Part shown: positions 5,539 through 61,659 of the stretch, piece by piece | How positions within the stretch are numbered: position 1 is the stretch's first letter | Layout of the letters: every line of letters starts with the position of its first letter | Origin: Minutocellus sp. GHC0000111 | Lineage: Eukaryota | Reading direction: 5' to 3' | Assembly: GCA_977018835.1 (NCBI GenBank) | Contig: OZ361258.1 | Span: 1,674,001-1,738,000 of the forward strand | DNA length: 64,000 bases | Position numbers and translations under genes: made by a program | Notes under the pieces: generated by a model | Database searches by the model: none | What the model was told of the DNA's origin: nothing | Seen by the model: the letters and a program-made list of their open reading frames with translations, nothing else

Positions 5539-5612
5539 CAAAGCAAAGCAAAGCAAAGCAAAGCAAAGCAAACCAAACCAAACCAAACCAACCAAACCAA
5601 CCAAACCAACCA
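5539..5612 (+). repeat. (CAAAG)n(CAAAC)n microsatellite
   Basis: Read directly. An analogous (CAACC)n(CAACA)n tract precedes the paralogous ORF at about 10710-10746. Confidence 0.9.
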
Positions 5613-5623
5613 AAGAACCACTC

Positions 5624-6158
5624 ATGACCGCATCATCATCGTTCGGAGACAGTGCCATCCTCGCCGATGGAAGCTCGTTGTCGGTGGTCGTCCTCGAAGG
5701 CGTCCTCAATGACGTAAATGATGATTTAGGCCTGCCTCGTAGACGACGAAGAACAAGAACAAGACGAAGAACACCCAGAGGTCATCCGCAGACGGAGGAA
5801 GGAACGTCGAGAGAGGCAGCGTCTCCTCCGCCGAAGCCGGGGGCAGAGGGCCTCTTCTTCCAACTCTGCACACGTCGACGCCGATGCTCATCAGCACCAA
5901 GCCGAACGGCAGGACCTCCTTGCCGTCTCGGCCACCGCCGCGGCCATTGCGCCGGACCTGCTCTTCAACCCTCGTGCTTGCGAGCTCCATCCGCTCGCGC
6001 TCGCTCCCACCATTCTCGCCGCCGTGGAGAACATGGCCATCAGCACCAACAACTTTGACAGAGAAAACATTGATAACAACATGCTTTCTGACGACGATGC
6101 CGTGGCCGCCACCGAGTCTGCTTCCGACGACGACGGTGACGAGTCCTTCTCAGCTTAG
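5624..6158 (+). pseudogene. Frameshifted paralog of the acidic ORF at 10757-11260
   Basis: Shares MTASS..., SVVVLEG(V/T)LND, GGAAGGAACGTCGAGAGAGGCAGCGTCTCCTCCGCCGAAGCCGGGG and the 3' end, but the reading frame is broken. Confidence 0.8.
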
Positions 6159-6507
6159 GCTGGCCGCTTTCCAGCTTTCCACGGTCGTCTCTACCTGCTA
6201 TTCACATCATCACATGCTATTATGCACACAAATGCGACGCGCGAAGGCCATCTTGCGCTCATAGGAATTCCTATGTGTGTGCATGTAAAGTCGACCGACG
6301 ACGAGTGCTGTTATGTAAAAATATCTCGCTCCTCTTTTTCTAAATACCAGCAATGTAAAGAGACGACACAAGAAATGCTACATCTACCTCTACTAGCTAG
6401 AGCTAGCTCCTACGTAGCTAGGTACAGCTCAAGAGATTCATCTCGTCTGCGTCGTAGATGACAAAGTCACATGCACCTATTCGCCATCCTCTTTTGTTTG
6501 GCCCACA

Positions 6508-6856
6508 ATGCGAGATGCCGAAACATCCTCAAGGTGTGACGCAGACGCTCTGGACGAGACCGTCATGAAGGTTTGGGGCGATGTTGCATCGGAAGATGCA
6601 TTTAAAAATGTTTTTGGTAAGTTGCCAATAACACATGCAAACATTAAGAATTGCAGTGGAGGCAACGACACTGTGGAATCCAACAGGGGGAAAAAGTTGG
6701 AGCTGCAAAAGTTGCTGCCGAAGAGGCCGACAGGAATGCTGAAGGGAACGAGGGGGGGAACCGTTGTGGACTTTGGACGCTTTTGAGGATGAAGACATGG
6801 AGGGGGAGGACATAGATGATGTAGAAGATGATGAGGGGGTCATAAATCTACTTTAA
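6508..6856 (+). pseudogene. Degenerate C-terminal fragment of a related mariner transposase
   Basis: DADALDETVMKVWGDVASEDAFKNVFGKLPITHANIK...GGNDTVE aligns with DANALDKTVMKVWANVASKEAFLNVFGKLPVIYNNIK...GGNNLVE. It ends GVINLL* versus GVIDLL*. Confidence 0.85.
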
Positions 6857-7148
6857 TCATGATTTTTGTGTAGCTACATGTAAGTTCCAACTCAAAAATC
6901 TCGAGTCGAATGAGTCGAACGGAAGGTGCCGCTGACGCGGCAATTTTTCCCATGAATCCCGAAAACCGCCTTACTAGCTAGTATGTCAAAACATGCTCGT
7001 TTCATCCATCAGCCCTCGCCGATCTGACATTCCCACATCTCGGAAATTGCAAACATTGCAGTCCGTTCGTCACTTTTTTGTCACTTTTCCACGGTCAGGA
7101 TAAATGTTCTTTGCAATGCTCTTTGCAACACGATGAATAAATTAAATA

Positions 7149-10100
7149 CCTTTCGAGTTCAGAGGATTTGAAAGTGACGTGATGATGACGTATTAGAAAC
7201 ACGACCACACCAGACCAAAAATCCAAGCTCACTTTTTCTAACTCCGAGGAATAAATGACGGCCAAGATGGAAGTCGGGGCAAGAACCAAGTTATGGTCAC
7301 CAACTTCTACATATAGTCGAGAGATATTGTGCACCAGAACCAATAAATGTACATTATGTGATGATTTTTTTCGACATTTGCATTCCTCACCCCGGGAAAA
7401 AATGCATTTTTGGAAGCACCAAATCAAAATGTAATGAATAGAAATGGACATGCTATGATAAGTTATAGCAAATCAATGACTCCATCGTCTTCATCATTTT
7501 CATCTATGTCGTCCTCAATGTCATCATCTTCGCCGGGAGCATCAATTGGCCAGAGTGGTTCACCATCCTCTTCAGCTTCTTCCTCGGCAATTTTTGCGAG
7601 AGACCAGCCTTTCCCCGTCTGGTCTCCACAAGATTGTTACCGCCACGACTTCTCTTGATGTTGTTATATATCACTGGAAGTTTTCCAAATACATTGAGAA
7701 AGGCCTCTTTTGATGCGACATTGGCCCATACTTTCATCACAGTCTTGTCAAGAGCATTCGCATCATTCTTCTGACCGCGATGCTCCTTTTCGACGGCCGA
7801 CTGCAAAGACATCCAGATGCCGAGATCAAGAACATTTGTCTCGGGCGACCGAGGAACCTGCTGGATTATCTCAATCTTATATTTGTTTTTGAGGTCCTCG
7901 GTGTACTTCTCAACTGCTTCATTGGACCCATGACCGCCGGCATTGTCCATCACAAGACATGCAACATCAGACTCCTGAACATTTTGTGGATCCCACTTCA
8001 CCCAATGATGTGCGTCTCGAATCGCCTTCCCGACCTCATTCACAGTCTCCAACATCCATTTGGAGTCGCAGCTACAGTCCTTGGTAACCTTATCGCCCCG
8101 TTGATACCGCACCCCGAGCTCAAGGTCGTCGATCTCAACCTTCACCTTCTCTCCATTGCTATCAGGAGTGTGTCGCTTGAGACTCGAGATCTTTTGATTG
8201 TAGCCAACAGCGGCATGCTTGCGACTTTTTGCCTGACCGTCGGATTTATAGTCCTCGCATTGAATTTCCAATCGCTCTGTAACAAACTCAGAAAGGCCGT
8301 AGATTTCGGCAATGTGGTCGCAAAGATGGCCGGCGGTCATGTCAGCATTCTCGTCGTAAATGTCGCGCCAATCTTTGTCATTTTTTAGCGCATCGTTGAC
8401 CTTAGCATCTGGAGAGAAATTCTGATTACGCGTAAGCTTTTCCACCTTCTGCTCCCTGGCGACTCTCTTGATCATGATGCGCCCATTGAAATCAACGTCT
8501 TTGGTTTCATCCTTCATTGGTCGGCCAACAACTCCAAGACACATAACTTTGACAGGGTGTCTTCTGGATCGAATTTTCGGGCTTGCCTCGGAAGCATGGA
8601 TAGACGCGAGGTTCGGACTACTTAGTTCTTCGTCAGAAAGTGGCAACATCTTGATCTTTCGTCGCCGAGTAGTAGTGTAAAACCACTTTTCATCAAGATA
8701 CGCTACAGGAATGTTGGGATCGGTCGTAATGTCCTCCCACTTTTCGATCCAATCAAGTCGCTTCCTACAATGTTCGGGGGTGAGCCTCGGCTTCTCGATC
8801 GACGACTTCTCCTTGCCGCCTTGCTTTTTCCACCAGCGAAAAAGCTGAAGACGATGGAGACTAATTGTCAGCCTATCTTCATCTGGAGTAGCTGATTTTG
8901 CGCTCATGCAGTCAGCTAGCTCCTTAAAGGTTGCCATCGCACCCTTCATCCGAGTAGCATGCCGATGCAGCTCGCGGAGATGTCCTGGCTTCTTCTCCTC
9001 GATCATGTCCGTGCATGCCTTCCTTCCACGAACCTCCTTTCTGCCGATGGGATTGCTGATGCCATCAGTAAGGCTTTTGTAGAGCTGGTCTCTCCACTTG
9101 TAAAGCTGAGAACCACCGGTTGACTTGGCATAACAGTGATCGTACGCAACTTGCCGACACGCGGCAGTTGCAATTTGTTGCCGGTCTTCATACGTGCGAG
9201 TTGGGTCGCCGTATCCCCACCAATCCGCGAGAGCCACGGCGCTGAACCGCATTCTTTCATTCGCCTGCTTTTCTTTTCTGATTGGCATTGGTTCGGTGAC
9301 GGTTGCATTGGGACGAGGAGGACGGAGCATGTCATCGTTGGCCATCCGAACAACAAAGTCGAGGCCGAGAGCGACCTTTACCTGTTCATCAATGTCACTG
9401 GAGGTGGCACAGACAACGGAAGTATCGGCTCCTCCTAAACCTTCATCATTGGGGGAGGCTGCAGCTGCTTCAGTGGCGGAAGTATCACCAGTTCCCTTCA
9501 GTATGCTGAGGAGACTTGCTGGCATCCAACCCAGTTTCTTGGCCTCGTCGACTAGTGATTTTACTCTTGCTTCGCAATGCGCTGACTGCACCTCCTTTCT
9601 GTGAGCTGACAACCTCTCACCTAGCTTAGTAGCTAAGACAGTCGAGCGCCCAGAGAACAGAACTTCATCGGGATTTCTTTTCTCGTGCACCTTCTGTCCC
9701 TCCGGTCCAGAGAATTTCGGGCGGTTGTCCTCCTTCTTTTTACGCAACCTGTGAGCACAAACACAAAGCGCCCTGCGTCTTGTCTTCCCTCTCGGCCGAC
9801 ACGTCGACAAGTGCAACTTCAAACTACAATGCTCCTTGAGATGTTGCTGCATATCCTTCCATTTTTCCTCGTTGTACTGTAGCTCATACTTTCCTCCACC
9901 GACGGACTTGGAACGCAACAAGTCGGCCTCGATGAAAGCAGGGAGGACGTCTTCCCATTTCTGCCGAGAACCAACACAAATGTCATCTTTGCCGCAGGAA
10001 TCGGGGGTTACTCTCCACCACAGATCCTTACCAGCCCTTCGAATGACATCTGCTGCAAGGAGAAAGGCCATGGGGATAGGAGGAGGGGCCGTCCTCTTCT

Positions 10101-10591
10101 TCGCCGACGACGGTGACGGTTTGGCGGGCGAATTTGACCGTGGCCGCTTCTTCGACGTGTTTGCGCTCGGCGATGGTGTTTTCGGCTCAGCTGCCGCCTT
10201 TGCCGCCTTCCTGGATGCCTTGGTGTTGCCTCTCTTGCTCCCTGAGAACGAAGTTCTGCTGCGTTTGTATTTTTTGGGCGTGGTCTGGTTGGTCGTCGTC
10301 ATCGTCACAAAATTTGCGGGTTGCGGTGTGAGGGGGTGTGCGGGGGACCAAAAATATATGTGTTCCTGCCAGAATCTACTGGACCTGCGAATTCAGTGGA
10401 TACTACTGGTCGGTGGCAACCTACTGAATGAGCAGGTCCAGTAGATATCCACGAGTTGAGGAGTATTTGCGTTCCTCCCGAAGAGAATGTCGACTAACAA
10501 AACACGTGGTGGGAAATGAGAAATGGGTGCAAGAATGACCTTTTTTAGGGGTTATTGGTATACCCTCTACAAATCCTCTGAAACCGAAAGG
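7149..10591 (-). mobile_element. Tc1/mariner DNA transposon (DD39D type), copy A
   Basis: 22-bp TIRs: CCTTTCGAGTTCAGAGGATTTG at 7149 and the reverse complement of CCTTTCGGTTTCAGAGGATTTG ending at 10591. TA target duplication at 7147-7148 and 10592-10593. Confidence 0.95.
7504..10308 (-). CDS. DD39D mariner transposase (934-aa ORF with a 2-bp frameshift near the C-terminus)
   Basis: Catalytic YLDEKWFY ... MDNAGGHG ... PRSPETNVLDLGIW, with 39 residues between the 2nd and 3rd Asp. An extra dinucleotide at about 7608-7612 replaces the acidic tail seen in copy B (native stop would be at 7463). Confidence 0.93.
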   Translation of the reverse strand: MTMTTTNQTTPKKYKRSRTSFSGSKRGNTKASRKAAKAAAEPKTPSPSANTSKKRPRSNSPAKPSPSSAKKRTAPPPIPMAFLLAADVIRRAGKDLWWRVTPDSCGKDDICVGSRQKWEDVLPAFIEADLLRSKSVGGGKYELQYNEEKWKDMQQHLKEHCSLKLHLSTCRPRGKTRRRALCVCAHRLRKKKEDNRPKFSGPEGQKVHEKRNPDEVLFSGRSTVLATKLGERLSAHRKEVQSAHCEARVKSLVDEAKKLGWMPASLLSILKGTGDTSATEAAAASPNDEGLGGADTSVVCATSSDIDEQVKVALGLDFVVRMANDDMLRPPRPNATVTEPMPIRKEKQANERMRFSAVALADWWGYGDPTRTYEDRQQIATAACRQVAYDHCYAKSTGGSQLYKWRDQLYKSLTDGISNPIGRKEVRGRKACTDMIEEKKPGHLRELHRHATRMKGAMATFKELADCMSAKSATPDEDRLTISLHRLQLFRWWKKQGGKEKSSIEKPRLTPEHCRKRLDWIEKWEDITTDPNIPVAYLDEKWFYTTTRRRKIKMLPLSDEELSSPNLASIHASEASPKIRSRRHPVKVMCLGVVGRPMKDETKDVDFNGRIMIKRVAREQKVEKLTRNQNFSPDAKVNDALKNDKDWRDIYDENADMTAGHLCDHIAEIYGLSEFVTERLEIQCEDYKSDGQAKSRKHAAVGYNQKISSLKRHTPDSNGEKVKVEIDDLELGVRYQRGDKVTKDCSCDSKWMLETVNEVGKAIRDAHHWVKWDPQNVQESDVACLVMDNAGGHGSNEAVEKYTEDLKNKYKIEIIQQVPRSPETNVLDLGIWMSLQSAVEKEHRGQKNDANALDKTVMKVWANVASKEAFLNVFGKLPVIYNNIKRSRGGNNLVETRRGKAGLSQKLPRKKLKRMVNHSGQLMLPAKMMTLRTT

Positions 10592-10756
10592 TAGGCCTAC
10601 ATTTTGCTGTTCGGCCGCCACGCCCTCGAACTTCACTCCCGACCTTGTACCGTAATTATCCAGCATCACAGTCTGTCATAAAAAATAAACAATCCTCCTT
10701 TGCGACGAATCAACCCAACCCAACCCAACACAACACAACCCAACCAAGAACGAATC

Positions 10757-11260
10757 ATGACCGCATCGTCAACAACATCCTTCGAAGACACCTGTGCCGC
10801 CTCGTCCTCTCCTTCGGAATCATCGTCGTCCGTGGTCGTCCTCGAAGGCACCCTCAATGATATACATGGAGGCCTCTACGACGAAGAACAAGAACAAGAC
10901 GACCAAAGCCCGGAAGTCATCCGCAGGCGTAGGAAGGAACGTCGAGAGAGGCAGCGTCTCCTCCGCCGAAGCCGGGGACAGAGGACCTCTTCTTCTCAGC
11001 ACCAAGCCGAACGGCAGGACCTCGTCGCCACCACTGAAGGCACCGCCGCCCTGGATCTGCTCTTCAACCCTCGCGCTCGCGACCTCCATCCTCTCAAGCT
11101 TGCTCCTGCTATCCTCGCCGCCGTGGAGAACACGACCATCAGCACCAACACCGTTGTCAGTGACAGCAACGTGCTCTCTGACGACGATGCCATGGCCGCC
11201 GCCGAGTCTGCTTCCGACGACGGCGACGACGAAGGTGACGAGTCCTCCTTCTCGACTTAG
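10757..11260 (+). CDS. Small acidic low-complexity protein of unknown function, duplicated at 5624-6158
   Basis: Open frame MTASSTTSFEDT...GDESSFST* with a basic RRRRKERRERQR patch. A degenerate paralog lies 5 kb upstream. Confidence 0.5.
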   Translation: MTASSTTSFEDTCAASSSPSESSSSVVVLEGTLNDIHGGLYDEEQEQDDQSPEVIRRRRKERRERQRLLRRSRGQRTSSSQHQAERQDLVATTEGTAALDLLFNPRARDLHPLKLAPAILAAVENTTISTNTVVSDSNVLSDDDAMAAAESASDDGDDEGDESSFST

Positions 11261-12397
11261 GCCGTCCGCTCTCCACGGTCTCTGTCTGCTCTTCGCACCG
11301 CAGACTATACAATGCAACGCACGAGACCCAGCCAGCTAGCACACATGCACATAGACAGTCGAATGATGCCGGCAAGAGAGTATCTTGCCATGCCATTCTT
11401 TTGAATGAAGAGAGAAGCAACATGTATTGCACATCAGTTACTTTACAAATAAGTAAAAAGAAATTAAATTAGTAAAGCCAATTTTGATTACGATTACGAT
11501 TGCATGACCCACCTCCTCTTGCATCTGCGCAGGATAGTAGAACAACTTCCAACACAAGACGCAGCTTGTGGATCCCTGCAAATAAATACCGTCATTTATT
11601 TACTCGTCCTCTTCCTCCGGGTCATCCACAATGTAAAGTGGACCACCGCTGAAAGTCCAAACATGATGCATTCTTCGGGACGAGGCATCGTCGTCTCCCT
11701 GAAACGGCATCGTATTGCCAACCGAAACATATCTGGGCCAAAAGGATTGTCCCCACTCCATGTTCTCGGTAGAGATGACCTGACGAAAGTCGCATGCCTT
11801 TATGTTGAAGCCCAAATCAACGAGACGTTGGTCCCGAAGACGATTTGTTCCTCCTCGATCTTGTGTCTCTTCGACAAATTGAGGACCTGTCTCCGTATTC
11901 GACGACATCCTGGCTATCTACCTTACTCACCGCCATCCGAGCACGTCACAAAGACAAGACCCATCATCTCCTTTCCCGTGATCCAAACCACACTACATGT
12001 ATTGAACAATACTTCCGCCCCCTCAGTTCACCTCCTCCCCGAGATGGAATCGGATAGGTGACCCCAACCGGACTCAGTGGCCGGTTTTTGCAAACTATTA
12101 TTTCACAACTCACACAATTATTATTTATATATATCAGGCCCGCCAATGGATCGTCGGCAGCTGCTCTTCACAACGTTTCTACACCATTCTGATGTCAAAC
12201 CAAGTTTTCCTGATGCCATTTTGTATGGTGCATTTTTGGCATGACTTCTCTCTAGTGCCCCTCAAAGTGTCCCTGCTTACCCCAATTGTGGGGTCTGTTC
12301 GGTAGGAGATCTATTCTCTGACTCGAGCCTAGCTCGTATGTCGGCTCGCCGATATCCCTCTAACCGAGGCATCGATACATAGACTCCTAAACTGCTA

Positions 12398-15300
12398 CCT
12401 TTCGGTTTCAGAGGATTTGTAGAGGGTATACCAATAACCCCTAAAAAAGGTCATTCTTGCACCCATTTCTCATTTCCCACCACGTGTTTTGTTAGTCGAT
12501 ATTCTCTTCGGGAGGAACGCAAATACTCCTCAACTCGTGGATATCTACTGGACCTGCTCATTCAGTAGGTTGCCACCGACCAGTAGTATCCACTGAATTC
12601 GCAGGTCCAGTAGATTCTGGCAGGAACACATATATTTTTGGTCCCCCGCACACCCTCACACCGCAACCCGCAAATTTTGTGACGATGACGACGACCAACC
12701 AGACCACGCCCAAAAAATACAAACGCAGCAGAACTTCGTTCTCAGGGAGCAAGAGAGGCAACACCAAGGCATCCAGGAAGGCGGCAAAGGCGGCAGCTGA
12801 GCCGAAAACACCATCGCCGAGCGCAAACACGTCGAAGAAGCGGCCACGGTCGGTCAAATTCGCCCGCCAAACCGTCACCGTCGTCGGCGAAGAAGAGGAC
12901 GGCCCCTCCTCCTATCCCCATGGCCTTTCTCCTTGCAGCAGATGTCATTCGAAGGGCTGGTAAGGATCTGTGGTGGAGAGTAACCCCCGATTCCTGCGGC
13001 AAAGATGACATTTGTGTTGGTTCTCGGCAGAAATGGGAAGACGTCCTCCCTGCTTTCATCGAGGCCGACTTGTTGCGTTCCAAGTCCGTCGGTGGAGGAA
13101 AGTATGAGCTACAGTACAACGAGGAAAAATGGAAGGATATGCAGCAACATCTCAAGGAGCATTGTAGTTTGAAGTTGCACTTGTCGACGTGTCGGCCGAG
13201 AGGGAAGACAAGACGCAGGGCGCTTTGTGTTTGTGCTCACAGGTTGCGTAAAAAGAAGGAGGACAACCAAACGAAATTCTCTGGACCGGAGGGACAGAAG
13301 GTGCACGAGAAAAGAAATCCCGATGAAGTTCTGTTCTCTGGGCGCTCGACTGTCTTAGCTACTAAGCTAGGTGAGAGGTTGTCAGCTCACAGAAAGGAGG
13401 TGCAGTCAGCGCATTGCGAAGCAAGAGTAAAATCACTAGTCGACGAGGCCAAGAAACTGGGTTGGATGCCAGCAAGTCTCCTCAGCATACTGAAGGGAAC
13501 TGGTGATACTTCCGCCACTGAAGCAGCTGCAGCCTCCCCCAATGATGAAGGTTTAGGAGGAGCCGATACTTCCGTTGTCTGTGCCACCTCCAGTGACATT
13601 GATGAACAGGAAAAGGTCGCTCTCGGCCTCGACTTTGTTGTTCGGATGGCCAACGATGACATGCTCCGTCCTCCTCGTCCCAATGCAACCGTCACCGAAC
13701 CAATGCCAATCAGAAAAGAAAAGCAGGCGAATGAAAGAATGCGGTTCAGCGCCGTGGCTCTCGCGGATTGGTGGGGACACGGCGACCCAACTCGCACGCA
13801 TGAAGACCGGCAACAAATTGCAACTGCCGCGTGTCGGCAAGTTGCGTACGATCACGGTCATGCCAAGTCAACCGGTGGTTCTCAGCTTTACAAGTGGAGA
13901 GACCAGCTCTACAAAAGCCTTACTGATGGCATCAGCAATCCCATCGGCAGAAAGGAGGTTCGTGGAAGGAAGGCATGCACGGACATGATCGAGGAGAAGG
14001 AGCCAGGATGTCTCCGCGAGCTGTGTCGGCATGCTGCTCGGATGAAGGGTGCGATGGCAACCTTTAAGGAGCTAGCTGACTGTATGAGCGCAAAATCAGC
14101 TACTCCAGATGAAGATAGGCTGACAATTAGTCTCCATCGTCTTCAGCTTTTTCGCTGGTGGAAAAAGCAAGGCGGCAAGGAGAAGTCGTCGATCGAGAAG
14201 CCGAGGCTCACCCCCGAACATTGTAGGAAGCGACTTGATTGGATCGAAAAGTGGGAGGACATTACGACCGATCCCAACATTCCTGTAGCGTATCTTGATG
14301 AAAAGTGGTTTTACACTACTACTCGGCGACGAAAGATCAAGATGTTGCCACTTTCTGACGAAGAACTAAGTAGTCCGAACCTCGCGTTTCCATGCTTCCG
14401 AGGCAAGCCCGAAAATTCGATCCAGAAGACACCCTGTCAAAGTTATGTGTCTTGGAGTTGTTGGCCGACCAATGAAGGATGAAACCAAAGACGTTGATTT
14501 CAATGGGCGCATCATGATCAAGAGAGTCGCCAGGGAGCAGAAGGTGGAAAAGCTTACGCGTAATCAGAATTTCTCTCCAGATGCTAAGGTCAACGATGCG
14601 CTAAAAAATGACAAAGATTGGCGCGACATTTACGACGAGAATGCTGACATGACCGCCGGCCATCTTTGCGACCACATTGCCGAAATCTACGGCCTTTCTG
14701 AGTTTGTTACAGAGCGATTGGAACTTCAATACGAGGACTATAAATCCGACGGTCAGGCAAAAAGTCGCAAGCATGCCGCTGTTGGCTACAATCAAAAGAT
14801 CTCGAGTCTCAAGCGACACACTCCTGATAGCAATGTGGAGAGAAGGTGAAGGTTGAGATCGACGACCTTGAGCTCGGGGTGCGGCATCAACGGGGCGATA
14901 AGGTTACCAAGGACTGTAGCTGCGACTCCAAATGGATGTTGGAGACTATGAATGAGGTCGGGAAGGCGATTCGAGACGCACATCATTGGGTGAAGTGGGA
15001 TCCACAAAATATTCAGGAGTCTGATGTTATGTGTCTTATGATGGACAATGCCGGCGGTCATGGGTCCAATGAAGCAGTTGAGAAGTACACCGAGGACCTC
15101 AAAAACAAATATAAGATTGAGACAATCCAGCAGGTTCCTCGGTCGCCCGAGACAAATGTTCTTGATCTCGGCATCTGGATGTCTTTGCAGTCGGCCGTCG
15201 AAAAGGAGCATCGCGGTCAGAAGAATGATGCGAATGCTCTTGACAAGACTGTGATGAAAGTATGGGCCAATGTCGCATCAAAAGAGGCCTTTCTCAATGT

Positions 15301-15839
15301 ATTTGGAAAACTTCCAGTGATATATAACAACATCAAGAGAAGTCGTGGCGGTAACAATCTTGTGGAGACCAGACGGGGAAAGGCTGGTCTCGCAAAAATT
15401 GCCGAGGAAGAAGCTGAAGAGGATGGTGAACCACTCTGGCCAATTGATGCTCCCGGCGAAGATGATGACATTGAGGACGACATAGATGAAAATGATGAAG
15501 ACGATGGAGTCATTGATTTGCTATAACTTATCATAGCATGTCCATTTCTATTCATTACATTTTGATTTGGTGCTTCCAAAAATGTATTTTTCCCGGGGTG
15601 AGGAATGCAAATGTCGAAAAAAATCATCACATAATGTACATTTATTGGTTCTGGTGCACAATATCTCTCGACTATATGTAGAAGTTGGTGACCATAACTT
15701 GGTTCTTGCCCCGACTTCCATCTTGGCCGTCATTTATTCCTCGGAGTTAGAAAAAGTGAGCTTGGATTTTTGGTCTGGTGTGGTCGTGTTTCTAATACGT
15801 CATCATCACGTCACTTTCAAATCCTCTGAACTCGAAAGG
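12398..15839 (+). mobile_element. Tc1/mariner DNA transposon (DD39D type), copy B, inverted relative to copy A
   Basis: Same TIRs. TA at 12396-12397 and 15840-15841. Nearly identical to the reverse complement of 7149-10591. Confidence 0.95.
12679..15526 (+). pseudogene. Frameshifted DD39D transposase of copy B
   Basis: ORF pieces 12679-12963, 12920-14482, 14445-14849 and 14846-15526 tile the copy A protein. Frameshifts at about 12850, 14386 and 14835. Confidence 0.92.
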
Positions 15840-17997: not shown

Positions 17998-20900
17998 CTA
18001 CAAGCTATACTTGTCGTCTGAGCTGTCAATATCAGATCGACATACCTTCTCTCTTGGGATTTTGACTTGAGCCTTCTCTGTCGCTGAATTGGCGTCGCTT
18101 TTATCCTCTCGATTTTCTGCATTTTCTACGGCACTTGATTCTTGATGAGGAGCACCAATCTCTTGCTCCTCATTACTATTGCCAGCTCTAGCATCATCGC
18201 CATCTTCATCCTCCTCCTCCTCCTCCTCCTCCTCCCATGCAAATTTTGTATCGGTGTATCCAGGATATTCTTTGCTTTGGAAAAGCTGCTGTAATGGGCG
18301 AAGGAGGAAGACCACCTGAGGCACACTGAACCCGTTCCCGATCAAGTGCCATCCGTAGTGGTAATCTTTCAGGCACACTTTTGTTCTCTGATTGATCTCT
18401 TGCAAAGCAAATGCAATCCTCCTTGGGTCATTGACTTCAAAGGAATCATCAATGGTGTGCGTAAACCCGCCTGGACCAAGACCGACAAAGCTCCAATACA
18501 TGGGTGGAAGTACATCGCGCCATTCTCTCGCTTCGAACGCTTCAAGCCCAACTGTGGATGCTACCCGCAAGTTGGCAAATAAATCCTCAATGGGCTGCTC
18601 GACATACCCTACCGGCAAGCCCATCAATCTCTCCCGGTCATTGGTGTCAAAGAGTTGCCTATCGCCAACGTGAGAGGCAGGTCGATCCTCACCGGGATCG
18701 ATCGCTGGGGCATCGTCTTTTATTCTATACTTGAATAGTGTCTTGTCCATGGTTCTGCCTTTACTAGCCAATAAAGTCATCACCTTTGCATCTATGCCCT
18801 TCTGAAGCATTGTCGGCATCATCCACCCATCATTGAAGCGGGTGGATCCTCCGGCTGGGTGCTCGTCGGCTGGAAACGAATCCGGCTGCCAATTGAAATA
18901 AAACACTCGATCCCTGTGACAAGGACCGAAGTTTGCAGCATCGCACCGATATTCGCTCACCTTGTAGTCCGCTGTGGCGTCTTGCGAACCCGGGACGTTT
19001 TCAACGAGAAAGAACAATTCATCGAAGGAATGAAATGCTTTATTGTATTTTTGTACCAAAGATATCAGCGTAGGAAAATCGCGCATGTATCTGCCGTGCA
19101 TACCTTCTGCGCCCATGCGACGCGCATTCACTTTAGAATGGTCTTGACAGGGCGGCCCTCCGATAACTATGTCGATAGGTCCTTGTTCTCGTACAATGCT
19201 TTGGATGTTGGCCTCTAGCTCTTCGTACGTTTCATACAAGGAATAGACGTATTCAACACCGTCATCCTGCGCAATTCCCAAGCCATAGGCTGGATCATGA
19301 TTGTACCGATGCACAGCCAAGGCAGCTCGATCATGCTCCACAACAATGTTTCTTTTGACAGCGATTCCTAGCTTTTTGAGCGCCACTGCTGCACCTCCGA
19401 TGCCTGCAAAAACTTCCAGAACAATCGCCTCGCGCTTGAGATTAGGATTTTCTCTTCTCGCTCTGCACAGCTGCTGGAATCTCTTATGCACAGCGACAGC
19501 TGTCTCGTCCGTCCATCTTCGGCTCTCTGGCGCTGCCAGAGCCAAATCGTTGTCACTTCGTGACTCTCGTGCTATCGCCGACCTTTTCCTGCTATCGAGA
19601 ACATTGGTCAAATGTCGTTGCATCTTTTTGTCCTCCTCAAGCCTCTTGCTGACAGCTTCAGGCTTCAAAGTTGCCGAAGTAGAAGCACAGCGTTCGAGAA
19701 TAGCTTTATCCGTGCAGTCGTCGTCGGAGGCACCGCCACCAGCGGGCGTTGTTTGTTTTATGAATCGTTCTTGTACACGCCCAAGAGACGAAAGAAAGCT
19801 TTCCAGCTTGTCGTTATTGTCAAGACCATGGCAGCAACCGCGGTGGTATTTCGAGACATTTTGACACTTGGCTAGCTTGGATGAATGTCCCCCGCACCGG
19901 CACAGGTAACAGCAGACGTCAATCTCTCCACACGACGAGGGCTCATCACTCGAAGTCTCAAAGATATTGTCCCTCTCCAGAGCATTTCTAAATGCAGTTA
20001 CATCCTTCACCAGACCTTCCTTCTCCCAGGCCGGCAGAGAAGTATTATTGTTCAAATATGCGAGAGCGGCCGATGGCGCAATGAATTCGTCTAGTCGAAT
20101 CCACGATGAACTCAAGGGAGATGTGCTTGGTACAATCGCTGCACTTTCGATTTCCATTGCAGCTGCCGCTGAGGACGAAGAGGTGGAATCGGAATCGCTA
20201 TCTGCAATAGGACCAGCACCAGCTGCTGCAGCGGCGACGGCTGCCACGTCGACCTTTCTTCTCCACTCAACCAGAAATTTAAGAATGGGCCTGCTCTCTT
20301 CACCGCCTGACTGCACTATTCGGTGATCGACTACACGGGCCTCGAAGGTCCGTCCTCCCTCAACGTATTCACAATTCTCTCCAGCTTCGGCGGCGGCTAA
20401 TTCGGCAGCATACTTCGCATCAGTTGATGTACAATTCGCGTTCGAGGCAGCTGCGCTGCTGACTTTCTCTTCGCCGGATATCCTATTTCGCTTTCGAGCA
20501 GGCGGCTTTGTATCATCTTCTGAATCATAAACGTAATCTTCATCATTGTCTTGATCACTCTTATCACTCTCATAATCAGCATCTTCATCACCATCGTCTG
20601 CCTCGTATCCAGGCGCGAAATCTCCTTGTATAACAATGTTACTAATTGCGGCCTCGGCCAAGTGCTCCTTGTCACCATCATCATACTTGACGTGGTAATA
20701 GTTGACGCCGGAAATGCCGGTATGCAGTTCGCTGGCGTGCACCAACTCGTCGATGGTGCCGTTGAAGTATTCCCCCTCGCTGACAAAGTACTTGCTGACT
20801 CTTTGTCCGAGCCGATATCTGTGCCTGGGTTTCCTTGCAGCTTTCTTCTTTTCTGCCTTCTTGTTGTCGGTGCTAGGTTTCGCATCCCCCTGGGGAACAA

Positions 20901-21465
20901 CTGTCGCGGCCGATGGCTTTTCATTGTTATTGGCGGGAGTGTTGGTGTCACCCTTTTGCTGCACATTGACATTGGCATGTCCGTCCCCACCACCGATGAC
21001 ATCGTCAACATGCCGCGAATAGAACGCCCGGAGCAACGACCCAAGCAGGTCCGATTCGTCCACCTCGCCCTTACCGAGATCATCTTTGCCATTATCGCCC
21101 AGCGTCCAGTCGTCCCACCTTCGTACCTGCGCCTCTGTCATGGTCTCTTCGTCTGTGTCCTCCGGATAGTAAATCGTGTACAACAATTCGTCCTCTTGGT
21201 TGCGACCAGTGTCCTCCTCCCCAGCAGGTTCGGACGTTCCAACTACATATCCGATAAAGTAACGCTTGTAGTTCGGAAAGTACTTCTTTATGCGCCTTCC
21301 GATGTCATAATTGGGTGATGCCGACATGTTTGGTGGTGGTTCGGTTGGGTTGGATGGCAGCAAATAATAAATCATCACATGATCATGGTGGTGCCGGTGT
21401 CGGGTGGCGGGCCCGCCACCTGACCTGCGGACTGGCGACTTGATGATGCAAAACAGAAAGCGCAA
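17998..21465 (-). CDS. DNMT3: C5-cytosine DNA methyltransferase, DNMT3-like, with two Tudor-like and one chromo-like N-terminal domains (likely start 21327)
   Basis: Motif I EVFAGIGG, IV GGPPCQDHSKVN, VI FLVENV, VIII HRDRVFYFNW, IX RERLMGLP and X LIGNGFSV. Tudor-like IGRRIKKYF and LGQRVSKYF...YHVKYDDGDKE. Chromo-like RVVDHR...KFLVEW...SSW. Confidence 0.85.
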   Translation of the reverse strand: MRFLFCIIKSPVRRSGGGPATRHRHHHDHVMIYYLLPSNPTEPPPNMSASPNYDIGRRIKKYFPNYKRYFIGYVVGTSEPAGEEDTGRNQEDELLYTIYYPEDTDEETMTEAQVRRWDDWTLGDNGKDDLGKGEVDESDLLGSLLRAFYSRHVDDVIGGGDGHANVNVQQKGDTNTPANNNEKPSAATVVPQGDAKPSTDNKKAEKKKAARKPRHRYRLGQRVSKYFVSEGEYFNGTIDELVHASELHTGISGVNYYHVKYDDGDKEHLAEAAISNIVIQGDFAPGYEADDGDEDADYESDKSDQDNDEDYVYDSEDDTKPPARKRNRISGEEKVSSAAASNANCTSTDAKYAAELAAAEAGENCEYVEGGRTFEARVVDHRIVQSGGEESRPILKFLVEWRRKVDVAAVAAAAAGAGPIADSDSDSTSSSSAAAAMEIESAAIVPSTSPLSSSWIRLDEFIAPSAALAYLNNNTSLPAWEKEGLVKDVTAFRNALERDNIFETSSDEPSSCGEIDVCCYLCRCGGHSSKLAKCQNVSKYHRGCCHGLDNNDKLESFLSSLGRVQERFIKQTTPAGGGASDDDCTDKAILERCASTSATLKPEAVSKRLEEDKKMQRHLTNVLDSRKRSAIARESRSDNDLALAAPESRRWTDETAVAVHKRFQQLCRARRENPNLKREAIVLEVFAGIGGAAVALKKLGIAVKRNIVVEHDRAALAVHRYNHDPAYGLGIAQDDGVEYVYSLYETYEELEANIQSIVREQGPIDIVIGGPPCQDHSKVNARRMGAEGMHGRYMRDFPTLISLVQKYNKAFHSFDELFFLVENVPGSQDATADYKVSEYRCDAANFGPCHRDRVFYFNWQPDSFPADEHPAGGSTRFNDGWMMPTMLQKGIDAKVMTLLASKGRTMDKTLFKYRIKDDAPAIDPGEDRPASHVGDRQLFDTNDRERLMGLPVGYVEQPIEDLFANLRVASTVGLEAFEAREWRDVLPPMYWSFVGLGPGGFTHTIDDSFEVNDPRRIAFALQEINQRTKVCLKDYHYGWHLIGNGFSVPQVVFLLRPLQQLFQSKEYPGYTDTKFAWEEEEEEEEDEDGDDARAGNSNEEQEIGAPHQESSAVENAENREDKSDANSATEKAQVKIPREKVCRSDIDSSDDKYSL

Positions 21466-21575
21466 CTGGCCGAACTCCGATCAGAAGAGCTTGAACAGCC
21501 GAACATGGCATGACATGACACAAATCGAAGCGTACTGTGTAGCGTTGTTCCTCCTTACGGTGCAGTGTATGAAAC

Positions 21576-34627: not shown

Positions 34628-35032
34628 GGCCGGCCAGAAGCCATAAACTGACGGTTCAGCAGAGGCCGGAAAAATGGACTTCGAGGACATTCTCTCCATT
34701 GGGAAAATCACTGCACCGATGGAACCGACTCAAATGCGCTCAAAATATATACCGGAAGCAGGCCGGCCGGAAGCCATAAACTGACGGTTCAGCAGAGGCC
34801 GGAAAAATGGACTTCGAGGACATTCTCTCCATTGGGAAATCACTGCACCGATGGAACCGACTCAAATGCGCTCAAAATATATACCGGAAGCAGGCCGGCC
34901 GGAAGCCATAAACTGACGGTTCAGCAGAGGCCGGAAAAATGGACTTCGAGGACATTCTCTCCATTGGGAAAATCACTGTACCGATGGAACCGACTCAAAT
35001 GCGCTCAAAATATATACCTAGGTACCGGAAGC
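34628..35032. repeat. Tandem repeat, three copies of about 133 bp
   Basis: Near-identical units start at 34628, 34761 and 34893 (GGCCGGCC.GAAGCCATAAACTGACGG...TATATACCGGAAGCA). Confidence 0.95.
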
Positions 35033-56111: not shown

Positions 56112-56518
56112 GAATTCTTCTCGTCGATGTCGTACCCGTTCGGTGTTGGTTGTTCTGCTGGCAGTGCTGGTAACACTACTACCCAACAACAACCTCCAAG
56201 GCGAAGAGGGGGTCTCAAGCGTTCGACGCCGTCGTCCCATCTCATCAATCCAGCGGGCATGCCCGGTTACAACAGCAGAGCGGCCACCGCTCTTCCCACC
56301 CATACTCAGTAGCAGCCATGCAGCAGATTCTAACTCTCAGTCAGTCCGATGCTCTGGTGGCCATCGAGGAGGTGCTCCGAAAGGTCGGCGATGGCCATGC
56401 CGCCGCGGCTGCCTAGAGCTAGCTTGAAGTAGGGACGCAAGGAGGCATCTACCATTATGGTGGCCAAAATCAGAGCCAAACGGATGAATCCACACTGCTA
56501 CTTTCATGTATATGGGCC

Positions 56519-58661
56519 CGGGTGCCCTCTGCAATGCTCCTGATATATTCCAAGAGAAAATTAATGATTTATTCTATGGTTTCGAGCATATCCAAGCATA
56601 TCTGGATGATGTGCTTCTTACTACAAAAGATACATGGGATAATCACCTCGAGGAACTCGAGCGTGTGCTTCTCAGAATTGCCGAGGCTGGCCTGAAAGTA
56701 AATGCAGACAAATCATTCTTTGGCCGCTTCGAATGCGAATACCTTGGATACTGGGTGACGCGCGATGGCATCCGTCCCCTCGCAAAGAAAGTTGAAGCAG
56801 TTGCTAATCTTGCTCCGCCAAAATCCGTCAAGCAAGTCCGTCGATTCGTCGGCCTTGTCAATTACTACCGCGACATGTGGCCTCGACGAGCACATATTCT
56901 CGCGCCTCTCACAAAACTGACGTCCAAGAAAAATACATTCGTATGGACGACCGTCGAACAAGAAGCGTTCGACGAGATGAAGCGTATCATCGGACGTGAC
57001 GCGCTCCTCGCTTATCCTGACTTCGATGACGAGTTCATCATTCACACCGACGCAAGCAAAACCCAACTCGGGGCCGTTATTTCTCAGAAGGGAAGGCCTA
57101 TCGCATTCTATTCCCGCAAATTGTCTGACGCGCAGACGCGCTACCTAGGTACACGACAACGGAACGAGAACTTTTGAGTATCGTAGAAACTCTCAAGGAA
57201 TTCAGAAACATCCTTCTTGGCCAGAAAGTCAAGATTTATACGGACCACAAAAATCTGACATACAAACAGTTCAATACAGACCGCGTGATGCGCTGGCGTC
57301 TGCTCATTGAAGAATATGGTCCCGAAATTATTTATGTCAAAGGCCTTGATAACGTAGCAGCTGACGCTCTTTCCCGGCTCAGCCTATCTGGCCTTCCGAC
57401 CGAAAATGACCCTGAAACCTTCGACGAATCGTTTGTTTCGAACGTCGAATTGGCGGAAAGATACGACGTCGCGTTGGATCGCGCTGACGTTGGCTCAATG
57501 CCTTTATCGTACAAAATGTTGCGTAAATACCAAAATCGGGACGCAAGCGTATCTGACCAAATTAGCGCTAAGAAACTACATACGCAGTCCTTTCGTGGGG
57601 CCGGAGGCAAGCAAATTGACCTCGCCTGCACATCCCAGGGGAAGATCTATGTACCGAAACCCCTGCGTAAGCACGTGATTGAATGGTACCACACGTATCT
57701 TATGCATCCTGGAGCGACCAGGACGGAGGAAACAATAAAGCAACACCTCTATTGGCCAGGCCTACAAGATGAAGTGAAGGCCGCAGTAACAAAATGCGCG
57801 ACTTGTCAGAAAAGCAAGAAGCAAATTCGCAAGTTTGGCCATCTGCCAGAGAAAGTAGCAGAAGCAGAACCATGGGAAAAATTATGTGTCGATCTTATCG
57901 GACAATATACTATCCGCCGCAAGGGAAAACATAAGCCTGACTTACAGCTGAAAGCCGTAACAATGATCGATCCAGCAACCGGATGGTTTGAGATCGCTAC
58001 TTACGATGATAAAAGGTCGATGACCGTAGCCAATATTGTCGAGTATACATGGCTATCAAGATATCCACGTCCATCGGAAGTTACCGTCGATCGTGGCAAA
58101 GAATTTATTGGCAGTGCGTTCAAGGATGAACTCTGCGAAAAAGAACATGATATTGAGGTGAAATTTGCTACTACGGCAAATCCACAAGCAAACTCAATTG
58201 TAGAGCGAATACATCAGACCTTGGCGTCGATGGTTCGTTCCAAGGACCTCGAAACATCAGAAGATGTCGAATTCGATTGGCAAGGCGTTCTTGCCGCCGC
58301 TGCGTATGGAATTCGCAGTACATATCATACAACGCTGAAAGCAAGTCCGGGACAGCTAGTATTTGGACGTGATATGAAATTTAATGTTCGTCACGTAGCT
58401 GACTGGCGACTTATACGAGAGCAGAAGCAAAAGATAATAAAAAAGAATAATGAACGTGAGAACGATAGGAGAATTCCTCATCGCTATCGCCGAGGCGACA
58501 AGATATTGTTGCTCAACAAGCAAGCCAACAAGTACGAGCGTCCTTACCTCGGACCGTACAAAGTCCTCGAGTTTCTCCCTGAAAGCGGGAATGTCAGGAT
58601 TCAGAAAGGGCCAATTTCCGAACGCGTCAACATCAGACGAGTGACGCCGTTCCGGGAATAG
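56519..58661 (+). mobile_element. pol: Ty3/Gypsy pol, 5'-truncated (RT - RNase H - integrase), frameshifted by an 8-bp insertion at about 57144
   Basis: RT YLDD. RNase H IHTDAS and YTDHKNL. Integrase HHCC, CVDL, TVDRGKEF and VERIH. Domain order RT-RH-IN. Confidence 0.95.
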
Positions 58662-58906: not shown

Positions 58907-60454
58907 ATTTTGTGCAACTGCTTTGTTCTACCTTTTCGTGTCTCTGTACCTCGTGCATGGTGCACAGTTGTAAACATGTGCGTTTGTTCTTGCTTAAGAT
59001 TTAAATAAGGTGTAGCTTAATTTTGTAGCACACACTGGCAAAATGTATTGGATGTTCACCCTGGCAGGCTTTCTCCCTTATTTCCCCCCTTTTTAGTTTC
59101 TGAATGACGTCATTATCTGACATGTAAAAATGCTGGATTCCCCTCAATTTTAAATCCTGTTTGGTTTTCGTGCCTTTGTGGATCTCCATTCTTTCATGCT
59201 TAGCATGACTTCTAAGTCACTAGTGCTCATTCGAAAGGTCTTCGCCCATCTGATCAGATCCTCTTTTTGCTTTTTTCCCCAGCTTGGTTTGATTGTATTT
59301 TTGTCTAGTCTTTCAATCCATTTTTCTCTCAGTTGCACTTTCTTGCACAGTGTTGCTCCGTCTCGTTGGCATTTGAGGCCTAGGACTCTGTGGTGATGAA
59401 GCCAAGTGAGAGGTCGCGCACCGGCGACAATGAGACGCCAACCAGAGGCGACGGAAGAACTCCTTGCCGAGAGGAGAGCCAATGAACGCATCCATGGAAA
59501 TTCGCGGTGATTCTTGGAGACGAGAGTGAGACAAGGGAGAGTGCGAAAGGCCATGGAAGAGAAAAAGGTTGTCAAAAGAGTGCTGCTGGGGGGGGGGGAG
59601 ATGACTCCAGAAAGCAGACTGCCTTGGCGCACCGAGACAGGACGAAGGCGCACCTGCAGATAGTTCCGATTACAGCTACAACACAACTGCTAGAAACTTG
59701 AGAACAGTTGACATCAAACAGAAACGGGATGGGTGCACACGAGAAGAGGGGGGAGAAGTGAACAACAATGAATGGTGCGATGACACTGCACGCAGACACG
59801 CCGCATGAAAAAAGGAAGGAATGGTTGTAGCACGAAGTGCCAATTTACAAATAATAGAAAAAGACGCACCCACTAGGGCACCCGGGCCATCTGCTGCGGC
59901 CTCCCTCCTCTCCCACCCCGACACGAACACCGCCTCGAATGAGAAGCCACGCTGCTGTTGATGCCGTGGGATGCGTACGTACGTATACATACGTACGGTA
60001 CGTACGGTGATCAGACCACTGACTCAGTGCCCTCTCCTGACCCTTGATCCATTTGCCAACGACATCTCCGATGGCCCATTTTTCATCTACGTAGGTCCTG
60101 TTCACCTCTACTAGCTATATCTATCTAGCTTAGCTTTAGGACCTCTTAGCAGACCTACGTGACACATCTTTTCCACCCGTGCTCGCCCCCCATTTCGGTT
60201 CGCACCTCACCGGCTTGTGTGTCTTGGGCTCTCTCACTCGTCACGCAAGAAAAACCGACACATCTTCAATCGGCCAAAACGACCGTTTCTTTCGACAATG
60301 TTGGAACGACGATCCAATCCCTTCCCCGAAAGTCCTGACCAGATCGACCCATGTCCAATCGACCACACTTCTCTGGATCGAACCTTCTGTCGATCATCAC
60401 ACGTCTCGCAGCAACGCCGCCGTGCTGCCTGTCTTCGCTGACTGAAACACCAGC

Positions 60455-61640
60455 ATGAATCCCGACGCAGTTTTTGGCCAACCTCTCGGCGCAGCGCCGA
60501 TTCTCCCCACCAAGTTAATCACACGCATGAATGACCCAGGACAACCTCCCCAACGCGAGCGTGTTGCCAAAGAGCGCTCAAGGAACTTCAACAAGCGGCG
60601 GCCAGCACTCCAGCAGGGGGTGCAATGACCACAGCCTCGGCCATTTGGGCCTCGTCGTCAGCGATGCCGAACACACCACCAAAAGCAACGGCCGACCACA
60701 TGTGCCTCCGGCAAATCCTGGCCCCAGCCCCACCATTCCCGCCGTGGCCAATCTAGACCAACGCGATCGTGCAAAATCCGGGGACATTGCATCGAAAAGG
60801 GCCACTGCAACTTGCACGAGCAAGTCAACGCGGCGCTCAAGAATCTCCTCCTCGACTCGATCGACGCCGTCTACATCAATCATCTCGAAGATGACATGCT
60901 CGGTTTCCAGCCAGTCACCATCCGCCAAATCATCGACAGCATTGCCGATCGCCACTTCTTGAAATTCAACGAGACTCAGAAGGAGGAGCTAGAGAAGCAG
61001 TGCGACGGGGGACCCATCGACACACCCACATCGCCACATTCAACAAAGTCTTCAAGGCGTTTGAAACGGCCGGCGAACCCTTCACCAACAAGCAAAAGGT
61101 CTCCAAGTTCTGCCGCTCCGTGCGCAGGTTCTCATTGGCAAAGAGGGCATGCGAGGACTGGGGGACGACAGACCGGAGGCCGAACGCACGTGGGCCAACA
61201 TGCAGTCGGACTTCCGCGATTGGCATGACAAGAAGATGGCCAACACCACCACCGAAGCGGCAGGACATCATGGCGCGAATTTGGCCTCATCGGCCTCGGA
61301 CGATCCATTTCTTTCTCGAGCCGATCTCCTTTTGGCTGACACCACCGAAGCCCTCAAGACCAACCAAGCCATGATGGCGAACCTCGCCAAAAAGAGCAAC
61401 GAGAAGGACGATGCCATTGCCAAACTTCGCCAAGAAACAGCTTCTGTCGGCGCCGCTCGAGGAGAGCAGTTGCGGCACCGACAGGGCAGCCGCCGCTGCT
61501 GCCACTGCTGCCCGTTTGGCCCGTGAAGGAATTCAAAGCCGAGACAGAGTTGAGGACTCCGGCAGTTTTACCCAACCCACCGGCGACGCCACCAGCGGCG
61601 GCTGCGCCACCCGACCTTCTCAGCAAAAGAGAAGAACATG
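60455..61640 (+). mobile_element. gag: Degenerate Ty1/copia (CoDi-like) gag
   Basis: GHLGLVVSDAEH...PANPG, ALKNLLLDSIDAVYINHLEDDMLGF, TWANMQSDF and AGHHGAN across several frameshifted ORFs. Confidence 0.75.
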
Positions 61641-61659
61641 CCGGGTGAGTGGCCAATCG

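Follow-up and report, generated by a model that had tools for sequence, protein, structure and literature searches.

What process has changed the TA steps of two nearly identical transposons in the genome of a likely diatom? The two copies, both Tc1/mariner-type DNA transposons, lie in the stretch of contig OZ361258.1 analysed here, 64 kb long and called the window in what follows. A diatom origin is suggested by its proteins, the named relatives of which are from Nitzschia, Mayamaea and Amphora. Copy A occupies positions 7149-10591 on the minus strand (3443 bp, terminal inverted repeats of ~22 bp, flanking TA at 7147-48 and 10592-93) and copy B, inverted with respect to it, is found at 12398-15839 on the plus strand (3442 bp, with TA on either side). 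A first-pass annotation of the window had noticed that most differences between them are TA in one copy and CA or TG in the other, and had proposed a repeat-targeted A>G process, a "reverse" version of the repeat-induced point mutation (RIP) of fungi. We consider that the transposon DNA of this organism is hypermutated at TpA, probably by a host deaminase of the TadA/ADAT type that is probably guided to transposon chromatin domains, and would give this reading a probability of about 0.6.

Differences between the two mariner copies

The copies are 98.8% identical, and their global alignment contains 22 substitution events and six small indels. The predominance of TA versus CA or TG was borne out by the alignment, with 17 of the 22 events belonging to this class (TA-type from here on). 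Fourteen were single differences between TA and CA or TG, located in copy B coordinates at 12500, 13778, 13799, 13859, 14036, 14083, 14731, 14885, 14948, 15011, 15029, 15038, 15123 and 15585, and three were double differences with CA in one copy and TG in the other (14009-10, 14024-25 and 15030-31). The doubles at 14009 and 14024 had already been spotted by eye, as had a series of amino acid differences that were all found in the alignment. The remaining events were single changes at 13611, 13856, 14000 and 14724 and a three-base change at 13269-71. Among single transitions 14 of 16 were TA-type, when a share of 0.20 would be expected by chance (p = 1.5e-8), and the adenines of TA steps changed per base ~41-fold as often as all other substitutions. 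Copy A contains 195 CG steps and just one difference between the copies (13269) was CG versus CA. The densest cluster of TA-type differences (15026-15046, plus strand) is found just 5' of the codon for the second catalytic Asp of the transposase.

The stretch, or part of it, was present in 20 public runs, and four of them, coming from three studies, were compared with copy A (the Illumina RNA library X7 and three runs with no recorded library type). TA-type variation accounted for 36 of the 40 listed variant places (42 in total). Most of these variants occurred in all four runs, and both products were seen at the doubles. The window itself may derive from one of the runs; the RNA run is from a different study and a different year. 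The presence of the same alleles in four runs including Illumina RNA-seq indicates that they are no base-calling artefact. Contigs of these runs show presence only, and the element sequence found in RNA libraries is to be read with the caution that such libraries may contain DNA.

Direction of change

A protein search retrieved 94 relatives of the transposase, and cluster look-ups added further copies, located on megabase contigs, that we infer to belong to the same assembly as the window. Forty of 43 such proteins (two did not align and one was a duplicate) were used to polarise the changes, together with copy A. Outgroup transposases indicated an ancestral Tyr in 31 columns, and 28 of these hold His or Cys among the 40 database copies and copy A, four of them having His in all copies. 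The 24 columns with ancestral His or Cys never had Tyr in any copy, three columns having been left aside (173 and 431, where the closest outgroup has His and the copies Tyr, and one with Arg in the copies). Tyr codons had become CAY (His) in 173 cases and TGY (Cys) in 160 (Y, pyrimidine), exactly the two outcomes of a change at TA, and recurrent alleles among the copies were TA-type in 58 cases versus eight of any other kind. At the DNA level, the three CA/TG doubles correspond to TAC, TAT and ATA TAT in the outgroup locus L001 (62% identity in the transposase protein), and the last of these agrees with the Ile-Tyr predicted in the first-pass annotation as ancestral just before the catalytic Asp. 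As polarised with either this outgroup or the family majority, TA was lost at 15 of the 17 TA-type sites, the exceptions being 14083 and 15011, where L001 carries CA or TG. Both the nucleotide sites and the Tyr columns support the direction from TA to TG or CA that had been suggested.

Target motif

The base located 3' of the mutated A, once the read-level TA-type variants had been oriented by strand, was a pyrimidine in 36 of 36 rows, not independent of each other since doubles are counted twice, against 118 of all 208 adenines located in TA steps of copy A (Fisher p = 2e-8). We had initially read the motif as RTAY only (R, purine), which was replaced by T[A]Y after orienting the strands. The family alignment gave a similar picture. 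At T|A codon junctions changes were found in 85/286 cells for TAC and 9/51 for TAT, compared with 7/149 for TAG and 1/151 for TAA, and there was no CTA>CCA or TTA>TCA change in 158 cells. AA>AG changes appeared in 5/1824 cells, versus changes in 333/583 Tyr cells. The target is mostly T[A]Y, on both strands, and is not absolute. The similar numbers of Cys and His products agree with the action on both strands proposed in the annotation; its second candidate, an error-prone synthesis with the WA>WG signature (W, A or T) of polymerase eta (Pol eta), is not supported, given the scarcity of AA>AG.

Regions affected and host genes

Counts of RTAY along the window revealed a second affected region. 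No RTAY was found between 60117 and 63496, a stretch of 3,379 bp (the next longest gap in the window measured 1,146 bp), which is a near-saturated domain of the same TA-loss process: the TA steps that survive in 60160-63490 are seven YTAR and eight one-strand targets. The domain includes a second repeat family, unrelated to the mariner (60450-61440, plus strand, with a broken open reading frame and no Pfam match), which may be gag-like. In relatives of this repeat with 84-94% identity, columns that are Tyr in a distant relative vary between Tyr, His and Cys. The rest of the domain is the 3' part of a host gene coding for a hybrid histidine kinase (61440-63490, minus strand, domains HATPase_c and Response_reg), cut off by the second repeat. 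Nine Tyr conserved in relatives are Cys in this kinase segment, all nine changed on one strand. Four of the nine Cys recur in P0374, the presumed allele, which has His at two more of these sites; 10 of the 16 differences between the two are TA-type. A protein from another record (P0381) has Tyr at every covered site that is Cys here. The loss of RTAY reaches ~2 kb into the host gene, while the 5' GAF-like exon beyond 63490 retains RTAY. The kinase gene appears to be single-copy, with no second copy of the segment in the window and a sole close match on a contig with another presumed allele. By eye, its intron (63400-63600) is rich in CA/TG runs, as expected of an intron once rich in TA that has undergone the process.

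As a control, we used six host genes, those of the ten submitted that were contained in the protein collection; the comparison was made on proteins, in which selection conceals changes. Among 3032 columns 193 were variable, and Tyr had been replaced by His or Cys in only one of 98 Tyr columns. Differences with four presumed other-haplotype proteins were TA-type in 8 of 45 cases, the null expectation being 19%. RTAY density was ~12 per kb in host stretches with intergenic DNA and 11 per kb as the window mean. Actually, the plain ratio of observed to expected TA is a poor marker (0.48 in copies A and B, 0.57 for the window mean and 0.2 in some GC-rich host stretches), and RTAY counts separate the regions better. 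The host columns, the allele differences and the RTAY map together, with the control at the protein level, favour the confinement to repeat-derived domains that had been assumed at the outset.

Mode of change and related elements

The choice between His and Cys at neighbouring sites was on the same strand in 64 of 137 cases within 10 codons, matching a shuffle that breaks linkage. One of five distance bins, with p = 0.011 by one of the two null models and p = 0.065 by the other, was discounted. These unlinked choices suggest that the copies were hit independently and repeatedly after insertion. Local same-strand runs do exist between A and B, three T>C at 13778-13859 and three A>G at 14010-14036, and these two short runs of copy B, with the nine of nine in the kinase, hint at occasional tracts.

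Beyond the family, the closest related group of transposases (clusters P0001 and P0008, 89% identity) had Tyr/His/Cys in three of six variable pairs. In other distant mariner clusters such pairs were 5/48, 4/120 and 0-1 in six more, a weak comparison as these are consensus assemblies, and the gypsy cluster, which mixes organisms, had one Tyr/His pair of 85. No TA-poverty was detected in 24 metagenome loci (observed/expected 0.52-0.88). Several distant mariner loci (among them L010, L016, L019 and L024) were strongly CpG-poor (0.05-0.21), indicating that the mutation of these elements varies from host to host.

Possible mechanism and alternatives

The candidate deaminase would convert A to inosine at T[A]Y, and replication would then fix G. 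It would be guided to chromatin domains containing transposons, each copy being hit anew after its insertion, as the unlinked His and Cys choices suggest. Targeting by domain and not by homology pairing would be consistent with the ~2 kb reach into an apparently single-copy gene. As judged from the sequences, the process is likely a host DNA-editing defence. Both a TadA/ADAT-like deaminase and Pol eta had been put forward as candidates, and the former is the more probable of the two. A further suggestion, that the process would erase the TA target sites of mariner elements, did not hold, all four target-site TA copies of A and B being intact.

Among the alternatives, the one that survives best, unlikely as we consider it, is the passive decay of a modified base at TpA (5-hydroxymethyl- or 5-formyluracil, or methylated adenine) in silenced repeats. 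Maintained marks are palindromic and so is TpA, the two strands are equally affected with no strand coordination among nearby sites, and the domain-like spread into the kinase gene is what would be expected of a chromatin mark. However, the preferred triplet T[A]Y is asymmetric and the symmetric YTAR is spared, and no TpA mark has been reported for diatoms in the literature surveyed. Furthermore, in the available text on a similar process in the chlorarachniophyte Bigelowiella natans (bioRxiv 10.64898/2026.01.13.699255), described below, the activity is on or off between lines and reaches a 1000-fold rate, which does not fit passive decay.

We find it improbable that a genome-wide T[A]Y mutation bias is at work and is seen only in neutral DNA because selection purges it from genes. 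TA is under-represented across the whole window (0.57), the host control was restricted to proteins and both polymorphisms of the copy A flanks are TA-type (see below), all of which would be compatible with such a bias. It is opposed by the RTAY map, with ~12 per kb in host and intergenic DNA, 45 in a broken gypsy and none in the 3.4-kb domain, and by the tolerated changes between host alleles, TA-type at the chance share (8/45). A duplicated open reading frame of unclear nature (5576-6173 and 10708-11275, 74% alike) also argues against it, since this old pair (5.6 vs 10.7 kb) has 57 differences of which 16 are CpG-type and four TA-type or CA/TG; the copy at 5576-6173 falls inside a 947-bp gap free of RTAY.

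Error-prone synthesis by an enzyme like Pol eta or Pol iota, inserting dG opposite T during transposon break repair or heterochromatin replication, seems less plausible still. TA is the hottest context for A>G errors of Pol eta, and the same-strand runs between A and B speak for it, but AA>AG is nearly missing (5/1824), hardly any other substitution is elevated and the saturated kinase segment is not mobile DNA.

We give very little credit to a reverse direction (CpA>TpA as in RIP, or CpG decay) or to a sequencing artefact over modified DNA: diatoms do carry DNMT4, related to the RIP enzyme RID (available part of PMC9998398), the sites 14083 and 15011 may run towards TA and CA/TG doubles could derive from CG, but both forms of the reverse direction are rejected because outgroups have Tyr and Ile, no His or Cys became Tyr, 15 of 17 sites are TA losses and one CG-type difference was found among 195 CG steps, and the artefact is contradicted by identical alleles in four runs, which come from three studies and include an Illumina cDNA library. 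The C>T change at CpA that makes TpA, typical of fungal RIP, was ruled out by the 24 ancestral His/Cys columns that never show Tyr.

Several observations weigh against the deaminase reading itself, besides the double counting mentioned for the motif. The tRNA targets of eukaryotic ADAT2/3 are mostly UAG and UAA and not UAY, and deamination of A or a lesion of T on the opposite strand would yield an identical result. The motif has exceptions (Tyr421 to His in 13 of 31 rows, and site 13859), and some Tyr codons in RTAY context (838 and 830) are scarcely changed. The strand coordination that a processive enzyme might give was not found among the family copies. This family thrives, being many-copy and recently mobile (275-member cluster and empty-site form), which makes a defensive effect less certain. 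The Ty3/gypsy pol fragment at 56488-58661 (plus strand) lies 1.5 kb from the RTAY-free domain and retains 45 RTAY in 2,174 bp, with TA steps intact and CpG observed/expected up to 1.5; compared with two other copies, 4/8 and 1/5 of the differences were TA-type, so that it is lightly hit, and being largely spared it indicates that repeat status alone is insufficient for targeting. Only two polymorphisms were seen in the unique sequence on either side of copy A (6983 and 10648). Both fit T[A]Y, other haplotypes or samples carrying TG/CA, and may reflect spreading or a wider bias. A host bias masked by selection was made less likely, by a control at the protein level.

The transposon and other features of the region

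The transposase frame of copy A (7504-10302, minus strand) has Asp567, Asp816 and Asp856 in typical motifs (numbering of the stop-to-stop frame), the last two separated by 39 residues. Neither Pfam nor PDB matches were found for it; a relative (P0018) matched HTH_Tnp_Tc3_2 with an E of 7e-6, below the curated cut-off, and another (P0004) DDE_3 with an E of 0.07. In copy A a 2-nt duplication near 7602 frameshifts the last ~30 codons, and in copy B the transposase is disrupted by indels at 12847-50, ~14387 and 14834-35. Both copies have the TA target-site duplication and terminal inverted repeats that characterise the IS630-Tc1-mariner elements (PMC7325037, available part). The same source describes the DD39D PlantMar group, which resembles the present element in the TA target-site duplication, short terminal inverted repeats, size (3.4 kb here) and the 39-residue spacing. 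The PlantMar hosts listed there are plants and a few oomycetes, here it is a likely diatom, and the spacing match, obtained by count, is only a lead.

An empty site lacking copy A (joint 7109->10595) was found in the runs X1, X2 and X5, indicating that this insertion is young or polymorphic. The transposase cluster has 275 members, and the contig depth in run X5 suggests ~120 element copies per single-haplotype depth, a figure that is no true copy number. An imperfect 74-bp palindrome is located within the 5' UTR of the element (10374-10446 in A and 12543-12615 in B). Next to copy A there is an older and more divergent C-terminal remnant of a transposase (6498-6860, plus strand), its relatedness to that of the element being judged by eye, and the region 6440-6870 has no RTAY among 11 TA steps.

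At 17998-21480 (minus strand), 2 kb from copy B, a C5 cytosine DNA methyltransferase (PF00145) is encoded, with a long N-terminus that has a weak Tudor-like match and with motifs resembling those of DNMT3. Diatom DNMT3 is described as devoid of chromatin-associated domains in the accessible part of PMC9998398, and the domain layout found here may be unusual. No link of this gene to the TA process was shown. Elsewhere in the window (34628-35018) there are three tandem copies of ~132 nt, 98% alike, which differ at two places, one CpG-type and the other TA-type.

Comparison with known systems

The RIP of ascomycete fungi fills repeats with dense transitions of one class at a single dinucleotide, acts on both strands and leaks into neighbouring sequences, and in all this it resembles the process described here. 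Its chemistry is the opposite: RIP changes C>T at CpA, making TpA and stop codons, and needs RID and homology pairing, whereas here A>G removes TpA and creates no stops. The term "reverse RIP" thus holds for the outcome and not for the pairing, which is not indicated given the mutation of an apparently single-copy host gene and of a single-copy region in B. natans (bioRxiv 10.64898/2026.01.13.699255, available text).

The adenine base editors derived from TadA also change A>G, preferentially where T precedes and C follows the A, according to the available part of PMC8989541. Their likeness to T[A]Y is an analogy; the editors are engineered and far less strict, and no natural enzyme acting on DNA is known to be tied to the signature described here. 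A natural DNA adenine deaminase, if true, would matter for the biology of genome defence and possibly for base editing. The T[A]Y motif and the measured reach into a host gene make the hunt for the enzyme tractable in diatoms, some of which are editable, and a process that removes TA distorts the dating and annotation of diatom repeats.

The first-pass annotation was unaware of any described pathway, and here it has to be corrected, since Mettrop et al. report one in B. natans (bioRxiv 10.64898/2026.01.13.699255; the statements that follow refer to its available text). In mutation-accumulation lines, two integrated viral regions mutate at a ~1000-fold rate, almost only by TpA>TpG/CpA, in some lines only. 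A single-copy region was hit, TpA-poor coding sequences were enriched for DDE and reverse transcriptase domains, and an ADAT2 homologue was proposed as the enzyme and is unproven. Within the literature surveyed, a targeted A>G mutator of DNA is in print for this one alga only, in one preprint and with a proposed enzyme. The main text of the preprint contains no mention of trinucleotide, flank, diatom or mariner, and no report of TpA hypermutation in diatoms was found in the literature surveyed, which covered few subscription papers. In both systems TpA becomes TpG or CpA on either strand, the changes being confined to domains of foreign or mobile DNA. They differ in the target, integrated viral DNA there and a young many-copy DNA transposon of a likely diatom here, and in the evidence, de novo mutations there and comparative data here, to which the T[A]Y motif and the extension into a host gene are added. 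Tentatively, and with a confidence slightly short of even, we suggest that diatoms and chlorarachniophytes might share a natural, chromatin-guided T[A]Y editor, opposite in chemistry to RIP and APOBEC, that attacks every new insertion soon after it arises on an evolutionary scale, spreads ~2 kb into adjacent genes and destroys Tyr codons. The locus, backed by independent reads, brings to two the eukaryotic supergroups with TpA hypermutation and shows a young DNA transposon in the middle of the process.

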